A stretch of DNA of 64,000 bases from NCBI RefSeq assembly GCF_016903815.1, contig NZ_CP069973.1. The stretch is one strand, 5' to 3'. The DNA comes from Escherichia coli. Lineage in GTDB: Bacteria > Pseudomonadota > Gammaproteobacteria > Enterobacterales > Enterobacteriaceae. The position numbers and the translations under genes are program-made. The notes below the pieces were generated by a model. The model was given only the letters and a program-made list of their open reading frames with translations, did not search any database and was not told where the DNA came from. Positions 5,190 through 32,132 of the stretch are shown here, piece by piece. How positions within the stretch are numbered: the first letter of the stretch is position 1; the number at the start of each line of letters is the position of its first letter.

Positions 5190-6200
5190 TCAGAGAATGT
5201 GCACCTGCATTTCCGGGTCTTTGCGATCCAGATAGTGGATGGACTGAATGCGGCGAATAGTGCGTGACTTGCCGCGGATCAGCAGCGTTTCGGTAGTCGC
5301 GATATTGCCTTTGCGGCTAATGCCTTCCAGCAGATCGCCTTTGGTAATACCGGTGGCAGAGAAGATGACGTTATCGCTGCGCGCCATATCGCCCAGACGC
5401 AATACTTTACCGGCTTCGATGCCCATCGCTTTGCAGCGTGCCAGCTCCTGCTCGCCAATGCGACGATTCTCTTCGTTGTCGCCTTTGACGTCATGACGCG
5501 CCAGCAGACGACCGTTCATGTCACCATCTAATGCGCGGATCACCGCCGCAGAAACCACGCCTTCCGGCGCGCCACCAATACCGTACAGCACGTCAACTTC
5601 GCTGTCTGGCATACAGGTGAGAATTGAGGCCGCAACGTCGCCATCCGGAATAGCAAATACGCGTACGCCGAGTTGCTGCATTTCAGCGATAACGGCATCG
5701 TGGCGTGGTTTAGCCAGAATCGTTACCGTCAGTTCGCTCAACGGTTTGCCGAGCGCCGCCGCTACATTGCGCAGGTTATCCGCCAGCGGCAGGTTCAGAT
5801 CAATGGTGCCTTTGGCTCCCGGTCCGACGATCAGCTTCTCCATATACATATCTGGCGCGTTGAGGAAACAGCCTTTATCGCCTACTGCCAGCACCGCCAG
5901 CGCGTTAGCCTGGCCCATCGCCGTCATGCGCGTGCCTTCAATCGGATCAACAGCAATATCTACCGCGTCGCCGCGACCAGTACCGACTTTTTCACCAATG
6001 TAGAGCATCGGTGCTTCGTCGATTTCACCTTCACCAATAACGATGGTGCCGTCAATGTTGACCTGGTTGAGCATAATACGCATGGCGTTTACCGCTGCGC
6101 CGTCCGCGGTGTTTTTATCGCCGCGTCCTAACCATTTGTAGCCAGCCAGCGCCGCAGATTCGGTGACGCGGGAAAATTCGATGGCAAGTTCTCGTCTCAT
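5190..6200 (-). CDS. glpX: fructose-1,6-bisphosphatase class II
   Basis: 336-aa product starting MRRELAIEFSRVTESAALAGYKWLGRGDKN inside the longer listed ORF 5190..6311; matches E. coli GlpX. Confidence 0.93.
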   Translation of the reverse strand: MRRELAIEFSRVTESAALAGYKWLGRGDKNTADGAAVNAMRIMLNQVNIDGTIVIGEGEIDEAPMLYIGEKVGTGRGDAVDIAVDPIEGTRMTAMGQANALAVLAVGDKGCFLNAPDMYMEKLIVGPGAKGTIDLNLPLADNLRNVAAALGKPLSELTVTILAKPRHDAVIAEMQQLGVRVFAIPDGDVAASILTCMPDSEVDVLYGIGGAPEGVVSAAVIRALDGDMNGRLLARHDVKGDNEENRRIGEQELARCKAMGIEAGKVLRLGDMARSDNVIFSATGITKGDLLEGISRKGNIATTETLLIRGKSRTIRRIQSIHYLDRKDPEMQVHIL

Positions 6201-26611: not shown

Positions 26612-29044
26612 ATGAGTGTGATTGCGCAGGCAGGGGCGAAAGGTCGTCAACTGCATAAATTTGGTGGCAGTAGTCTGGCTGATGTGAAGTGTTATTTGCG
26701 TGTCGCGGGCATTATGGCGGAGTACTCTCAGCCTGACGATATGATGGTGGTTTCCGCCGCCGGTAGCACCACTAACCAGTTGATTAACTGGTTGAAACTA
26801 AGTCAGACCGATCGTCTCTCTGCGCATCAGGTTCAACAAACGCTGCGTCGCTATCAGTGCGATCTGATTAGCGGCCTGCTACCCGCCGAAGAAGCCGATA
26901 GCCTCATTAGTGCCTTTATCAGCGATCTTGAGCGCCTGGCGGCGCTGCTCGACAGCGGTATTAACGACGCGGTGTATGCGGAAGTGGTGGGCCACGGCGA
27001 AGTGTGGTCGGCGCGCCTGATGTCTGCGGTACTTAATCAACAAGGGCTGCCAGCGGCCTGGCTTGATGCTCGCGAGTTTTTACGCGCTGAACGCGCTGCG
27101 CAACCGCAGGTTGATGAAGGGCTTTCTTACCCGTTGCTGCAACAGCTACTGGTACAACATCCAGGCAAACGTCTGGTGGTGACCGGGTTTATCAGCCGTA
27201 ACAACGCCGGTGAAACGGTGCTGCTGGGGCGTAACGGTTCCGACTATTCCGCGACACAAATCGGTGCGCTGGCGGGAGTTTCCCGCGTAACCATCTGGAG
27301 CGACGTCGCCGGGGTATACAGCGCCGACCCGCGTAAAGTGAAAGATGCCTGCCTGCTGCCGTTGCTGCGTCTGGATGAGGCCAGCGAACTGGCGCGTCTG
27401 GCGGCTCCCGTTCTTCACGCCCGTACTTTACAGCCAGTTTCTGGCAGCGAAATCGACCTGCAACTGCGCTGTAGCTACACGCCGGATCAAGGTTCCACGC
27501 GCATTGAACGCGTGCTGGCCTCCGGTACTGGTGCGCGTATTGTCACCAGCCATGATGATGTCTGCTTGATTGAGTTTCAGGTGCCCGCCAGCCAGGATTT
27601 CAAACTGGCGCATAAAGAGATCGACCAGATCCTGAAACGTGCTCAGGTGCGCCCACTGGCGGTTGGCGTGCATAACGATCGCCAGTTGCTGCAATTTTGC
27701 TACACCTCAGAAGTGGCCGACAGTGCGCTGAAAATCCTCGACGAAGAGGGATTACCTGGCGAACTGCGCCTGCGTCAGGGGCTGGCGCTGGTGGCGATGG
27801 TTGGGGCGGGTGTCACCCGTAACCCGCTGCATTGCCACCGCTTCTGGCAGCAACTGAAAGGCCAGCCGGTCGAATTTACCTGGCAGTCCGATGACGGCAT
27901 CAGCCTGGTGGCAGTACTGCGCACCGGACCAACCGAAAGCCTGATTCAGGGGCTGCATCAGTCCGTCTTCCGCGCAGAAAAACGCATCGGCCTGGTATTG
28001 TTCGGCAAGGGCAATATCGGTTCCCGCTGGCTGGAACTGTTCGCCCGTGAGCAGAGCACGCTTTCGGCGCGTACCGGCTTTGAATTTGTGCTGGCAGGCG
28101 TGGTGGACAGCCGCCGCAGCCTGTTGAGCTATGACGGGCTGGACGCCAGCCGCGCGTTAGCCTTCTTCAACGATGAAGCGGTCGAGCAGGATGAAGAGTC
28201 GCTGTTCCTGTGGATGCGCGCCCATCCGTATGATGATTTAGTGGTGTTGGACGTTACCGCCAGCCAGCAGCTTGCTGATCAGTATCTCGATTTTGCCAGC
28301 CACGGTTTCCACGTCATCAGCGCCAACAAACTGGCGGGAGCGAGCGACAGCAATAAATATCGCCAGATCCACGACGCCTTCGAAAAAACCGGGCGTCACT
28401 GGCTGTACAACGCCACCGTCGGTGCGGGCTTGCCGATCAACCATACCGTGCGCGATCTGATCGACAGCGGCGATACTATTTTGTCGATCAGTGGGATCTT
28501 CTCCGGCACGCTCTCCTGGCTGTTCCTGCAATTCGACGGTAGCGTGCCGTTTACCGAGCTGGTGGATCAGGCGTGGCAGCAGGGCTTAACCGAGCCTGAT
28601 CCGCGTGATGACCTTTCCGGCAAAGACGTGATGCGCAAGCTGGTGATTCTGGCGCGTGAAGCGGGTTACGACATCGAACCAGATCAGGTGCGCGTGGAAT
28701 CGCTGGTGCCTGCCCATTGCGAAGGCGGTAGCATCGACCATTTCTTTGAAAACGGCGATGAACTTAACGAGCAGATGGTGCAACGACTGGAAGCGGCCCG
28801 CGAAATGGGGCTGGTGCTGCGCTATGTGGCGCGTTTCGATGCCAATGGCAAAGCGCGTGTGGGCGTGGAAGCGGTGCGTGAAGACCATCCGCTGGCATCA
28901 CTGCTGCCGTGCGATAACGTCTTTGCCATCGAAAGCCGCTGGTATCGCGATAACCCTCTGGTGATCCGTGGGCCTGGCGCGGGGCGCGACGTCACCGCAG
29001 GGGCGATTCAGTCGGATATTAACCGCCTGGCGCAGTTGTTGTAA
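26612..29044 (+). CDS. metL: bifunctional aspartokinase II / homoserine dehydrogenase II
   Basis: 810-aa ORF starting 2 nt after the metB stop; recognised as MetL. Confidence 0.96.
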   Translation: MSVIAQAGAKGRQLHKFGGSSLADVKCYLRVAGIMAEYSQPDDMMVVSAAGSTTNQLINWLKLSQTDRLSAHQVQQTLRRYQCDLISGLLPAEEADSLISAFISDLERLAALLDSGINDAVYAEVVGHGEVWSARLMSAVLNQQGLPAAWLDAREFLRAERAAQPQVDEGLSYPLLQQLLVQHPGKRLVVTGFISRNNAGETVLLGRNGSDYSATQIGALAGVSRVTIWSDVAGVYSADPRKVKDACLLPLLRLDEASELARLAAPVLHARTLQPVSGSEIDLQLRCSYTPDQGSTRIERVLASGTGARIVTSHDDVCLIEFQVPASQDFKLAHKEIDQILKRAQVRPLAVGVHNDRQLLQFCYTSEVADSALKILDEEGLPGELRLRQGLALVAMVGAGVTRNPLHCHRFWQQLKGQPVEFTWQSDDGISLVAVLRTGPTESLIQGLHQSVFRAEKRIGLVLFGKGNIGSRWLELFAREQSTLSARTGFEFVLAGVVDSRRSLLSYDGLDASRALAFFNDEAVEQDEESLFLWMRAHPYDDLVVLDVTASQQLADQYLDFASHGFHVISANKLAGASDSNKYRQIHDAFEKTGRHWLYNATVGAGLPINHTVRDLIDSGDTILSISGIFSGTLSWLFLQFDGSVPFTELVDQAWQQGLTEPDPRDDLSGKDVMRKLVILAREAGYDIEPDQVRVESLVPAHCEGGSIDHFFENGDELNEQMVQRLEAAREMGLVLRYVARFDANGKARVGVEAVREDHPLASLLPCDNVFAIESRWYRDNPLVIRGPGAGRDVTAGAIQSDINRLAQLL

Positions 29045-30138
29045 TCCTGAGCCAGAGAAAGCAGTATTTGCGTAACGCGCCCTGCGGAAAGCGGGGCGCT
29101 GTGAGTAAATACTGCTTGTTTATGTAGCCAGTCGATAAAATGTCTGCTGGTTGCTAAAGAGAGCATTTCTGCTTTGCTGTTATTTCCGCCCGTTAATGCA
29201 CATACCATTTTACGATTTTTGCCCTGAACCCAGAGTTGCCACTGATTTTTCCACCAGCCGTGATAAGTTGTTCCCTGAAAACGCCAGGGCATATTATCGG
29301 TATCGTCAGCTATTTCCTCTTCAATAAACCAAATCTCACCTTGCTGTTGGCGAAACAGATCAGCCCATGCCGTAATAATGGCACCTCTTAAAAAACACTC
29401 GTGTGAAATTACATGTGTTTTTACTGTAGGGAATAAAATATTCAGTACTCTGAAATGCCCGTGTGCAGTGATAACCGGACGCAGAATAACACCTTTAGCA
29501 TTGCGTTTGAGCGCTGCGCTGCCATATTGAATCTCATCAAACTGACTGCGGCGTAGAAATTGTGCTTCGCGCATATCAACGCGTTGTACAATATTACTCT
29601 CGTGTAACTCTGGTTCTGCATTCCCTCTGTATCGATAATGCAGACTTTCTCCAGCCTGATGCTGCGTGTAATTAGTAGAAAGATGAAGAATATTACCGCG
29701 AAGAGCATCAAAACTGATTAAAACATACAGTTTCTGCCCGCCGCTGGCTCCCTGAAATGGCACCAGAAGAGCAACCGTTTCGATTATTTCAGGAGGCGTT
29801 ATTTCTTTCTGATATTGTTTAGGTGTCCAGACTTTTTTGCAGTTACGACATTGAATGCGTTGCGACCCCTGTGGATTGTGGCCATAACAAATCGTCTTTG
29901 TGCCATAACATACCGGGCAGAAATGACCTTTCTCAGTTGCAAAAGTAGATAAGTGAACTGACAACCAGTCACGAAATTGCTGTTCGTCAAACAACGGCGG
30001 GTAACTTCCACATGCCCGACAGTGCAGTGCCGGATAACCCAGTCGATAGTCTGGCCAGCTGTAATCTGTCGATGTTGGTTGCCCTAAATTACGACAACCA
30101 AACGACTTGCAGGCATTAATCGTAAACAGAGTCGACAT
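29008..30138 (-). CDS. hypothetical protein with Cys-rich (putative zinc-ribbon) N-terminal region; not present at this locus in K-12 as I recall
   Basis: 376-aa ORF. N-terminal 110 aa contain four Cys pairs (C-x4-C, HC-x2-C, C-x2-C, C-x2-C). No family recognised. Region is more AT-rich than the flanking genes. The 3' end overlaps the metL 3' end by 37 nt. Confidence 0.55.
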   Translation of the reverse strand: MSTLFTINACKSFGCRNLGQPTSTDYSWPDYRLGYPALHCRACGSYPPLFDEQQFRDWLSVHLSTFATEKGHFCPVCYGTKTICYGHNPQGSQRIQCRNCKKVWTPKQYQKEITPPEIIETVALLVPFQGASGGQKLYVLISFDALRGNILHLSTNYTQHQAGESLHYRYRGNAEPELHESNIVQRVDMREAQFLRRSQFDEIQYGSAALKRNAKGVILRPVITAHGHFRVLNILFPTVKTHVISHECFLRGAIITAWADLFRQQQGEIWFIEEEIADDTDNMPWRFQGTTYHGWWKNQWQLWVQGKNRKMVCALTGGNNSKAEMLSLATSRHFIDWLHKQAVFTHSAPLSAGRVTQILLSLAQDYNNCARRLISD

Positions 30139-30270
30139 ATATCACCAACGATTTCACAAGGTCGTTGATTTTGTCCGGCAACTATCCCCTGCGGATGTGA
30201 TTACTCTCACATAAATAACTCTTTCAGAACGTAATGTAGCAATCCTTTAAATCACTGAAAGGGACTATTT

Positions 30271-31824
30271 ATGAAAATTAAAATACTTGCTGCGGGTATC
30301 GCATTAACATTGCCGTTCTGGGCTTGCGCCAAAGATGTCACCATCATTTATACCAACGACCTCCATGCGCATGTCGAGCCTTATAAAGTGCCGTGGATCG
30401 CTGATGGTAAACGGGATATTGGCGGCTGGGCAAATATCACTACGCTGGTTAAGCAAGAAAAAGCAAAAAATAAAGCGACATGGTTTTTTGATGCGGGTGA
30501 TTATTTTACCGGGCCATATATCAGCAGCCTGACCAAAGGTAAGGCTATTATCGATATTATGAATACTATGCCGTTTGATGCCGTCACGATAGGCAACCAT
30601 GAATTTGACCACGGCTGGGACAACACATTATTACAGTTGAGTCAGGCAAAATTCCCTATTGTGCAGGGCAATGTTTTTTATCAGAACAGCAGTAAATCAT
30701 TCTGGGATAAGCCATATACCATCATCGAAAAAGACGGTGTGAAAATAGGCGTTATAGGTTTGCACGGTGTATTTGCCTTTAATGACACGGTATCTGCGGC
30801 AACGCGAGTGGGGATTGAAGCGCGTGATGAAATTAAATGGCTACAACGTTATATCGATGAACTTAAAGGCAAGGTTGATTTGACCGTCGCCCTGATCCAT
30901 GAAGGTGTTCCGGCCCGCCAGTCCAGTATGGGAGGCACAGATGTGCGTCGCGCGCTGGATAAAGATATTCAGACGGCAAGTCAGGTGAAAGGGCTGGATA
31001 TTTTGATCACCGGACATGCGCATGTGGGTACGCCGGAACCGATTAAAGTCGGCAATACGCTCATCCTCTCCACTGACAGCGGCGGGATTGATGTGGGCAA
31101 ACTGGTTCTCGACTACAAAGAGAAGCCGCATGATTTTACGGTGAAAAACTTCGAGCTTAAAACCATTTACGCCGACGAGTGGAAGCCCGATCCGCAAACA
31201 AAACAGGTGATCGACGGCTGGAATAAAAAGCTTGATGAAGTGGTGCAACAAACGGTCGCGAAATCGCCGGTTGAATTAAAACGTGCCTATGGTGAATCGG
31301 CTTCCCTCGGGAACCTGGCGGCTGATGCTTTACTGGTAGCGGCGGGTAAAAACACCCAATTGGCGTTAACCAACTCTGGCGGCATTCGCAATGAGATCCC
31401 CGCAGGGGCGATTACGATGGGCGGCGTCATCAGTACCTTCCCGTTTCCCAACGAACTGGTGACGATGGATCTCACGGGTAAACAATTACGCAGTTTGATG
31501 GAACACGGCGCAAGTTTAAGTAATGGCGTTTTACAGGTATCGAAAGGCCTGGAAATGAAGTACGACAGCAGTAAGCCGGTTGGTCAGCGGGTAATCACGC
31601 TGACTCTGAATGGCAAACCGATTGAAGATGCGACGATTTACCACATTGCTACTCAGAGTTTCCTTGCTGATGGTGGAGATGGTTTTACCGCCTTTACCGA
31701 AGGGAAAGCGCGTAACACAACGGGCGGTTATTACGTTTATCACGCCGTGGTTGATTACTTCAAAGCGGGTAACACCATCACGGATGAACAGATCAACGGT
31801 ATGCGCGTGAAAGATATCAAGTAA
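30271..31824 (+). CDS. secreted 5'-nucleotidase / UDP-sugar hydrolase family metallophosphoesterase (UshA-like)
   Basis: 517-aa ORF with N-terminal signal peptide ([20 protein letters not shown]). Calcineurin-like phosphoesterase motifs ([27 protein letters not shown]) and C-terminal 5'-nucleotidase-type motifs ([19 protein letters not shown]). Divergent from the 376-aa ORF. Confidence 0.8.
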
Positions 31825-32132
31825 AAGTACGTATTGAGTTGATTCATCTGTTTGTTACCAGTTGATTTTGCAGATCCAGTATTCGGCCTACGCGAGGGCG
31901 CAGGCCGAATCAGATGCCTTAGCATCACCATCCGGTGGCAGGACGTTGTTTTTCGAATAAGCCCAGGTGTCGCTGTGTTGTCAGAATATCAGTCAAAACG
32001 TGCGAGGTGGATTGCGCTATAGAGAAATCTTTTATCGCCTCTAATTAAGATGAGTTTTTTTCAACTTCCCTGATTTTTCCTCACCATCATTGGTCATTTT
32101 TCGGTTGACGCCCTTTAGCTTTTCCTTCATCT

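Follow-up and report, generated by a model that had tools for sequence, protein, structure and literature searches.

A probable CRP-controlled periplasmic 5'-nucleotidase and its divergent, transposase-derived partner at the metL-metF locus of Escherichia coli

The present analysis concerns a gene pair located between metL and metF in a stretch of 64,000 nucleotides of the Escherichia coli contig NZ_CP069973.1 (assembly GCF_016903815.1; the whole stretch is referred to as the window): an open reading frame (ORF) with ATG start for a 517-aa periplasmic 5'-nucleotidase-family metallophosphoesterase (30271..31824, plus strand), which is the subject of this study, and a divergently oriented gene for a 376-aa partner protein (29008..30138, minus strand) that possesses two Cys4 zinc ribbons and an RNase H-like domain of the transposase/integrase type. 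The pair probably constitutes a CRP-controlled, periplasmic nucleotide-scavenging 5'-nucleotidase with a dedicated transposase-derived regulator, the substrate range, CRP control and regulator role of which we infer from sequence and gene context. According to this proposal, the nucleotidase would be exported by the Sec system, cleaved after Ala20 and released into the periplasm, where it would act as a dimetal 5'-nucleotidase of the UshA/CD73 superfamily with the two-metal site and the His110-Asp113 dyad in the N-terminal domain; the nucleobase would be clamped between Phe392 and Phe464 of the C-terminal domain, and the domain-rotation catalysis of the family would release nucleoside and phosphate. 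Its likely role would be the scavenging of extracellular nucleotides with subsequent import of the nucleoside products. The CRP promoter would raise expression once preferred carbon sources are exhausted, as in the known nucleoside-catabolism genes, and the partner would bind a conserved palindrome and thereby regulate the gene pair.

Domain architecture and export of the nucleotidase

The Pfam analysis of the 517-aa protein recovered the domain order of the superfamily, i.e. an N-terminal dimetal phosphoesterase domain (PF00149, Metallophos; residues 24-252, 30340..31026, plus strand; E 4e-12) followed by a C-terminal substrate-binding domain (PF02872, 5_nucleotid_C; residues 335-477, 31273..31701, plus strand; E 1e-38). 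All five motifs quoted in an earlier note on this DNA were present (DLHAH at residues 30-34, GDYF at 76-79, GNHEFD at 108-113, GHAH at 248-251, NSGGIR at 368-373). Residues 1-20 (30271..30330, plus strand) were read from the sequence as a predicted signal peptide that consists of a basic n-region, a hydrophobic core and an A-x-A motif, with signal peptidase I (SPase I) cleavage between A-C-A and K-D, the latter forming the mature N-terminus. The signal peptides of the other nucleotidase paralogues end in A-x-[AQ] followed by [KQE]-[DE]. As Cys19 is replaced by Ser in the 89%-identical orthologue of Enterobacter, the motif was assigned as an SPase I site and not as a lipobox; a lipoprotein was ruled out on these grounds, Cys19 not being kept and the A-x-A site being present. 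The mature protein contains no cysteine, and the construct crystallised for the Protein Data Bank (PDB) begins at residue 20. The nucleotidase is accordingly read as an SPase I substrate and a soluble periplasmic protein, and its description in the earlier note as a secreted 5'-nucleotidase-family metallophosphoesterase was borne out by the signal peptide and both domains. The ratio of nonsynonymous to synonymous substitution rates (dN/dS) of the gene was 0.04-0.06.

Active site and family assignment

Alignment with K-12 UshA (25% identity; reference residues D41, H43, D84, N116, H117, D120, H217, H252 and Q254) mapped the metal ligands of the nucleotidase to D30, H32, D77, N109, H210, H249 and H251 and its catalytic dyad to H110/D113; all of these residues were invariant in the eight aligned members of the subfamily. 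The base-stacking pair F392/F464 (UshA F429/F498) was likewise invariant, and R373, N394 and D470 (UshA R410, N431 and D504) were conserved. Judged by this alignment, the 5'-nucleotidase catalytic machinery and the nucleoside clamp are intact. The nucleotidase thus has the two-domain architecture, metal ligands, His-Asp dyad, Phe-Phe clamp, the R410/N431/D504 set and the periplasmic location in common with UshA; it differs in being 33 aa shorter (517 versus 550 aa), in the position of UshA Gln254, which is taken by His251, and in lacking Arg375/Arg379. Furthermore, ushA is a core gene (carried by 5418 of the 5426 complete E. coli genomes), whereas the nucleotidase is accessory and possesses its own promoter architecture and partner gene.

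The profile scores of the nucleotidase remained far below the cut-offs of the named families: 152 bits against the NCBIfam UshA equivalog NF007109 (cut-off 600), 101.6 and 100.3 bits against the CpdB models NF006938 and TIGR01390 (cut-offs 486 and 883; N-terminal domain only), 134 bits against the NadN equivalog TIGR01530 (cut-off 436) and 153 bits against SoxB (NCBIfam cut-off 550). NCBIfam Nt5e_LPXTG matched with E 2e-44, and the Pfam match to NadN_nucleosid_C was weak (E 0.14). An assignment of the protein as canonical UshA or CpdB orthologue, with which it has the superfamily domains and nothing further in common, can be dismissed with near certainty on the basis of its 25% identity to UshA, the sub-cut-off scores, the separate presence of ushA and the metL-metF location, which corresponds neither to the ushA nor to the cpdB site. 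The profile scores, the UshA alignment and the core status of ushA instead place it in a separate paralogue subfamily, neither UshA, CpdB nor NadN, and so uphold the earlier note in its view of an extra paralogue that is distinct from, and shorter than, UshA.

The best PDB match was 3IVD/3IVE ("Nucleotidase"), which aligned over residues 19-517 and differed from the window protein at 9 of the 498 aligned native residues (98% identical; V134I, D288N, P308Q, K331Q, V356A, D400E, I455V, T482I and I508L versus the 3IVD/3IVE chain). Residues 20-517 of the CFT073 orthologue WP_000694070.1 showed no difference from the crystallised chain; the PDB entries represent the CFT073 allele of the window nucleotidase, and the protein is hence not new. 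It is nevertheless a different allele, and CFT073 harbors the gene in a five-gene form of the locus (see below). The two entries probably stem from structural genomics on locus c4898 and contain bound uridine and cytidine, the structure presumably having been deposited since about 2009. The next solved relatives were the 5'-nucleotidase of Thermus thermophilus (2Z1A, E 2.5e-46), ecto-5'-nucleotidase CD73 (about 1e-32), a glycosylphosphatidylinositol-anchored dimer, NadN (2e-29) and UshA (2e-23). 2Z1A and CD73, the closest after the protein's own structure, gave full-length alignments but are distant in sequence and have no genomic context in common with the nucleotidase. Taken alone, the enzyme is an ordinary, biochemically uncharacterised and already crystallised member of a well-understood family; a 2023 survey of ushA-like genes (PMC10454023), which used canonical probes only, did not single out this paralogue.

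The shared control region

The two genes are separated by a divergent intergenic region of 132 bp (30139..30270), in which the alignment revealed three blocks conserved across about 12 genera. It contains a perfect CRP-type box, TGTGATTACTCTCACA (30196..30211), which is the sole match to TGTGA-N6-TCACA in the window (0.07 expected) and the half-sites of which were conserved in the 15 sequences of the intergenic alignment. The invariant block A, CTTTCAGAACGTAA (30221..30237, plus strand), ends in a conserved, -10-like TAAnnT hexamer (30232-30237). The center of the CRP-type box lies 28.5 bp upstream of this hexamer; as this spacing fits class II geometry, a class II CRP-dependent promoter is suggested for the nucleotidase gene. 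On the side of the partner, a palindrome CAACGA-N10-TCGTTG (30146..30167) with invariant arms and variable spacer is positioned 8 bp from the partner start codon, where it overlaps the Shine-Dalgarno-like GGTGA of that gene; it represents a candidate operator.

The RNA fold of the palindrome was not exceptional (z -0.94); neither did the control-region elements fold better as RNA than shuffled controls nor give an Rfam match above noise. Since the RNA folds were unexceptional and assignable to no Rfam family, the elements are read as protein-binding sites, and a structured RNA was ruled out for the non-coding parts (Rfam null, hairpin energies unexceptional).

The nucleoside scavenging genes tsx, nupC, nupG, udp, deo and cdd of E. 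coli are controlled by CRP and CytR. The nucleotidase resembles this regulon in the CRP-type box of its promoter and in its neighborhood links to Tsx-like channels and NupC-type transporters; in contrast, its presumed regulator is transposase-derived and not a repressor of the LacI family. In Vibrionaceae-type loci, ACGGAAACGTTTGCGT or TATACGGAAACGTTTGGCTATA was found in the nucleotidase promoter where enterics have CTTTCAGAACGTAA (L054, 5906-5921; L056, about 5905-5925; L016, 3338-3359). ACGGAAACGTTTGCGT is a LacI-family palindrome that agrees with 15 of the 16 positions of the PurR-box consensus; a PurR-like box would again tie the nucleotidase gene to the nucleotide economy.

A hairpin with a 13-bp stem (31881..31910, plus strand) is located 3' of the nucleotidase stop codon; it is followed by a second, short hairpin (CCGGTGG) and a run of T residues (about 31930-31957). 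These elements probably mark the 3' end of the transcript; confidence in this assignment is low because the hairpin was not listed by the terminator scan.

The transposase-derived partner protein

As a single sequence, the partner matched no Pfam domain and gave only weak matches to zinc ribbons of the IS1/IS1595 insertion sequences (IS). An exhaustive search recovered 118 relatives among 1.84 billion cluster representatives, which were labelled, where named at all, as "cytoplasmic protein" or "IS1 family transposase". Based on an alignment of 47 sequences, the N-terminal part comprises two Cys4 zinc ribbons (C10, C15, C40, C43 and C74, C77, C97, C100), and the near-invariant core includes N156, Y168, R197, F200, Y205, P221, H228, H246, E247, W296 and W300. 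The AlphaFold2 model was confident (predicted local distance difference test score 92.9, predicted template modelling score 0.93); the C-terminal domain has an RNase H-like fold as in DDE transposases. When the family profile was compared by hhalign with InsA of the IS1 copy in the window, a probability of 96.8% (E 3e-10) was obtained; the match spans the zinc ribbon and, in the family members of 420-480 aa, additionally a helix-turn-helix (HTH) motif. No sequence similarity to InsB was detected by hhalign (probability 0.2%), and the score on NCBIfam transpos_IS1 (NF033558) was 20.8 bits against a cut-off of 100.

The partner is thus a transposase-derived protein, a domesticated relative of the IS1 type. 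It shares with IS1 InsA/InsAB' an InsA-type zinc ribbon and, in its C-terminal domain, the RNase H-like fold known from DDE transposases; it differs from IS1 in the extra N-terminal zinc ribbon, the deletion of the HTH in the 376-aa form and the missing similarity to InsB; moreover, it is devoid of inverted repeats, mostly single-copy, syntenic, under selection (dN/dS 0.08-0.17, indicating purifying selection) and paired with a nucleotidase gene. An active IS or transposon was ruled out, there being neither terminal inverted repeats nor target-site duplications nor InsB similarity. The neighbor described in the earlier note as an unknown Cys-rich protein is therefore a real Cys-rich ORF, yet no incidental one: it is a conserved, divergent, transposase-derived partner. 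It is the new part of this case. The database labels of its family members are uninformative or wrong.

Pairing with nucleotide-scavenging genes

A pattern scan with a 13-sequence partner alignment, restricted to one genome per species, yielded 39 loci. A 5'-nucleotidase homologue was situated immediately upstream of, and divergent to, the partner gene in 38 of them, the remaining locus lying at a contig edge. The pairing extended to Vibrionaceae with a partner identity of 25-28% and was also present in two metagenomic relatives of the partner at 23-27% identity. Two other distant relatives were found next to different genes of the same theme: one is divergent from genes for a NupC-type nucleoside transporter and a PNP/UDP-family phosphorylase, and another of 462 aa is divergent from genes for a porin, a class-B acid phosphatase and a class-II 3',5'-cyclic-nucleotide phosphodiesterase. 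The latter locus (L013/L014, 1023-6389), in the vicinity of which IS3-family transposase genes occur, may be a separate periplasmic module for cyclic-nucleotide/nucleotide scavenging that is likewise accompanied by a partner of this type. A Tsx-like nucleoside channel and two to three further paralogues belong to the expanded clusters of E. coli and E. albertii. Gene context points to nucleotide scavenging, and a dedicated regulator is the most parsimonious interpretation of the partner in view of its divergent arrangement, the common theme of its neighbors and its DNA-binding ancestry.

A more far-reaching proposal is put forward tentatively, as a possibility that we hold somewhat less plausible than its negation: the 376-aa partner would found an unrecognised family of IS1-transposase-derived transcription regulators dedicated to periplasmic nucleotide/nucleoside scavenging modules in Enterobacterales and Vibrionales. 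Its members would consist of zinc ribbons with or without HTH and an RNase H-like core with altered catalysis, which may serve as a sensor of nucleoside or nucleotide ligands; the modules served, with the same reservation for the proposal as a whole, would be 5'-nucleotidases, NupC, acid phosphatase and cyclic-nucleotide phosphodiesterase.

Distribution and ancestry of the locus

The gene order of the window is metB-metL-(376-aa gene, minus strand)-(517-aa gene, plus strand)-metF-katG, and the nucleotidase region is identical (100%) to that of E. coli strain 7/2. An islet of about 3.0 kb (29045..32050) was delimited by alignment of both junctions with a K-12-like locus and by the annotation of E. 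coli 7/2 and of the K-12-like strain; K-12-type E. coli lack it and contain an unrelated spacer of about 200 bp in its place. Its left edge coincides exactly with the metL stop codon, the 3' end of metL being overlapped by the final 12 codons of the partner gene, and about 155 bp separate its right edge from the metF start further downstream. Of the 5426 complete E. coli genomes, 1837 (34%) contained at least 80% of the islet. A third state, with the order metL-Tsx-like channel-539-aa nucleotidase-516-aa nucleotidase-374-aa partner-517-aa nucleotidase-metF, was found in 659 of the 5426 genomes (12%), including CFT073, Nissle 1917, Seattle 1946 and D8-type E. coli (loci L003, 367-7557; L057; L059, 1-4246, from D8-type E. 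coli, Seattle 1946 and CFT073). The window enzyme shared 68% identity with the 539-aa and 57% with the 516-aa nucleotidase, and the 3' two-thirds of the gene for the 374-aa partner allele were only 63-79% identical to the window partner at the DNA level. Three states, empty, two-gene and five-gene, consequently exist at one site in E. coli. The designation "strain-specific" in the earlier note is correct in the sense of this presence/absence polymorphism, and not beyond it.

The pair occupied the position between metL and metF in the order of the window in at least 24 of the 39 species loci and at least nine genera, i.e. in Pseudocitrobacter, Escherichia (E. whittamii and other lineages), Citrobacter (at least six species), Kosakonia, Phytobacter, Superficieibacter and Kluyvera as well as in Klebsiella pneumoniae, K. 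oxytoca, K. spallanzanii and Salmonella enterica subsp. arizonae. Compared with a divergent Escherichia genome, the islet was 90-95% and the flanking metL/metF 91-98% identical; compared with another E. coli of the two-gene form, islet and flanks were both about 94-99% identical. Neither terminal inverted repeats nor target-site duplications were present at the islet ends. The G+C content of the islet (44-52% versus 55-60% in metL) may be due to weak codon bias or to an acquisition of older date and is no sign of recent arrival. Because the metL-metF position is common to at least nine genera and divergence tracks the flanks, the simplest interpretation is that the locus is old in enterobacteria and that many E. 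coli lineages, including those of K-12 type, have lost it; a recent foreign islet is ruled out by the cross-genus synteny and the same course of divergence, and the term "acquired islet" used in the earlier note is misleading. A phage origin was rejected likewise, as the nucleotidase matched only an unannotated PHROG and the partner gave only weak matches to transposase zinc ribbons; a component of anti-phage defence was rejected since PADLOC gave no match for either protein.

In Enterobacter, Pluralibacter, Silvania, Rahnella and Cronobacter the pair is located elsewhere and adjoins a gene for an AssT-like arylsulfotransferase, sometimes together with a Tsx-like gene and extra paralogues. Near chaC, E. 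albertii (L005/L006, 1-7352) carries a tandem array of four 5'-nucleotidase paralogues together with genes for a Tsx-like channel and a small radical-SAM protein; its partner homologue was situated at the edge of a separate contig (L026). In Salmonella the locus of the pair looks decayed: the partner match of S. enterica subsp. arizonae (L049) spans residues 126-368 only, and serovars of subsp. enterica contain fragments of the nucleotidase (49% coverage) and of the partner (about 200-260 aa; P0088, P0100 and matches in the AlphaFold database).

Points against the proposal and alternative functions

Several observations weigh against a CRP-controlled scavenging enzyme with a dedicated regulator. 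The InsA-like HTH segment of the longer family members is deleted in the 376-aa enterobacterial form of the partner. Acidic E247 was kept in all 47 aligned family members, for which reason the role of the partner may be catalytic rather than regulatory; as E247 is the only universal acidic column, a canonical DDE triad is doubtful according to the alignment columns and the order of secondary structures (an acidic residue occurs at column 144 in 72% and at column 201 in 85% of the members, and a conserved Asp is missing from the first core strand). On the side of the enzyme, the phosphate-binding Arg375 and Arg379 of UshA were aligned with a gap and a Tyr, positions that depend on the alignment; as these arginines have no aligned counterpart, phosphate-side recognition or substrate preference may differ from that of UshA. 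In a generic promoter scan, the intergenic region lacked a strong sigma-70 site, as would be expected of an activator-dependent promoter, and CRP binding as well as the transcription start are deduced from sequence only. Also unexplained by the proposal is the gene for the AssT-like enzyme, a periplasmic arylsulfotransferase, which in Enterobacter, Cronobacter, Pluralibacter and Silvania can adjoin the pair on one flank or the other (loci L004, 2043-3569; L007, 6615-8141; L023-L025, L028, L044, L045 and L047). A full-text literature search for the nucleotidase, c4898, 3IVD or 3IVE found no paper, and hence no biochemistry or genetics.

An unlikely, though not negligible, alternative is that the nucleotidase is a specialised hydrolase of NAD/nicotinamide mononucleotide (NadN-like), of UDP-sugars/CDP-alcohols or of linear or cyclic (di)nucleotides, with clustered paralogues dividing the substrates among themselves. 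Besides the UshA arginines that are not conserved and the His251 in place of Gln254, specialisation is suggested by the paralogues of one cluster, because these are mutually only 50-68% identical; the weak NadN_nucleosid_C match and the partner relative that flanks a cyclic-nucleotide phosphodiesterase agree with this idea. The scores for NadN (134 versus 436 bits) and CpdB (102 versus 486 bits) do not, and both the nucleoside-clamping residues of the 5'-nucleotidase type and the identity of the closest other solved relatives (T. thermophilus 5'-nucleotidase, CD73) favor an ordinary 5'-nucleotidase. It is considerably less probable that the enzyme is a host-directed factor which, comparable to AdsA of Staphylococcus and streptococcal Nt5e, would generate adenosine from host ATP/AMP and thereby damp purinergic immune signalling. 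Membership in the same superfamily (see the Nt5e_LPXTG match) and the occurrence of the gene in extraintestinal pathogenic strains such as CFT073 are in line with this function; however, the nucleotidase is predicted to be periplasmic and devoid of a surface anchor, the gene is also present in probiotic Nissle 1917 and in environmental or plant-associated Kosakonia, Phytobacter and Rahnella, and its context is that of nucleoside uptake and catabolism.

The least favored of these alternatives, for which we see hardly any probability, is a mobile cassette in which the partner is still an active transposase or recombinase and the nucleotidase its cargo, so that the patchy distribution would be explained. 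The transposase-type fold, the IS1 InsA-like zinc ribbon, the universal acidic residue 247 and the occurrence of the pair in at least three chromosomal contexts (between metL and metF, adjacent to the arylsulfotransferase gene, and near chaC) would be compatible with mobility. Against this stand the islet ends devoid of terminal inverted repeats and target-site duplications, the constant metL-metF position across the genera, the mostly single copy per genome and the divergence that follows the flanks; the two further acidic columns of the partner are not universal, its first core strand has no invariant Asp, and similarity to InsB and a transpos_IS1 score near the cut-off (20.8 versus 100 bits) are both missing. 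The CRP-controlled scavenging 5'-nucleotidase with a transposase-derived regulator therefore remains the preferred explanation.

The partner and its near-obligate link to nucleotide scavenging are the part most worth following, as the enzyme alone adds little. The partner is a concrete candidate for the domestication of a transposase into a bacterial regulator; the regulator family, if true, would be a rare and clear bacterial case of this process. The expanded locus with the Tsx-like channel occurs in CFT073, Nissle 1917 and ATCC 25922-type strains, and the polymorphic locus may influence, in the gut or urinary tract, how well strains grow on extracellular nucleotides or on products of DNA degradation.

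Other features of the window

Between the priA side and yiiX/metJ, the window contains a gene for a 1390-aa Rhs core protein (18006-22178, plus strand) with a core of 62% G+C, a tip of 30% G+C and small ORFs downstream. The gene is followed by an IS1 copy (about 22700-23475; InsA 22760-23035, InsB 22954-23457); at least 80% of this arrangement was present in about 2020 of the 5426 E. coli genomes. An imperfect inverted repeat of 27 nt (29059-29117; 78% complementary, 5-nt loop) starts 15 bp past the metL stop codon and lies wholly within the 3' part of the coding sequence of the partner, which is convergent to metL; it may be a metBL terminator that is embedded in coding sequence.

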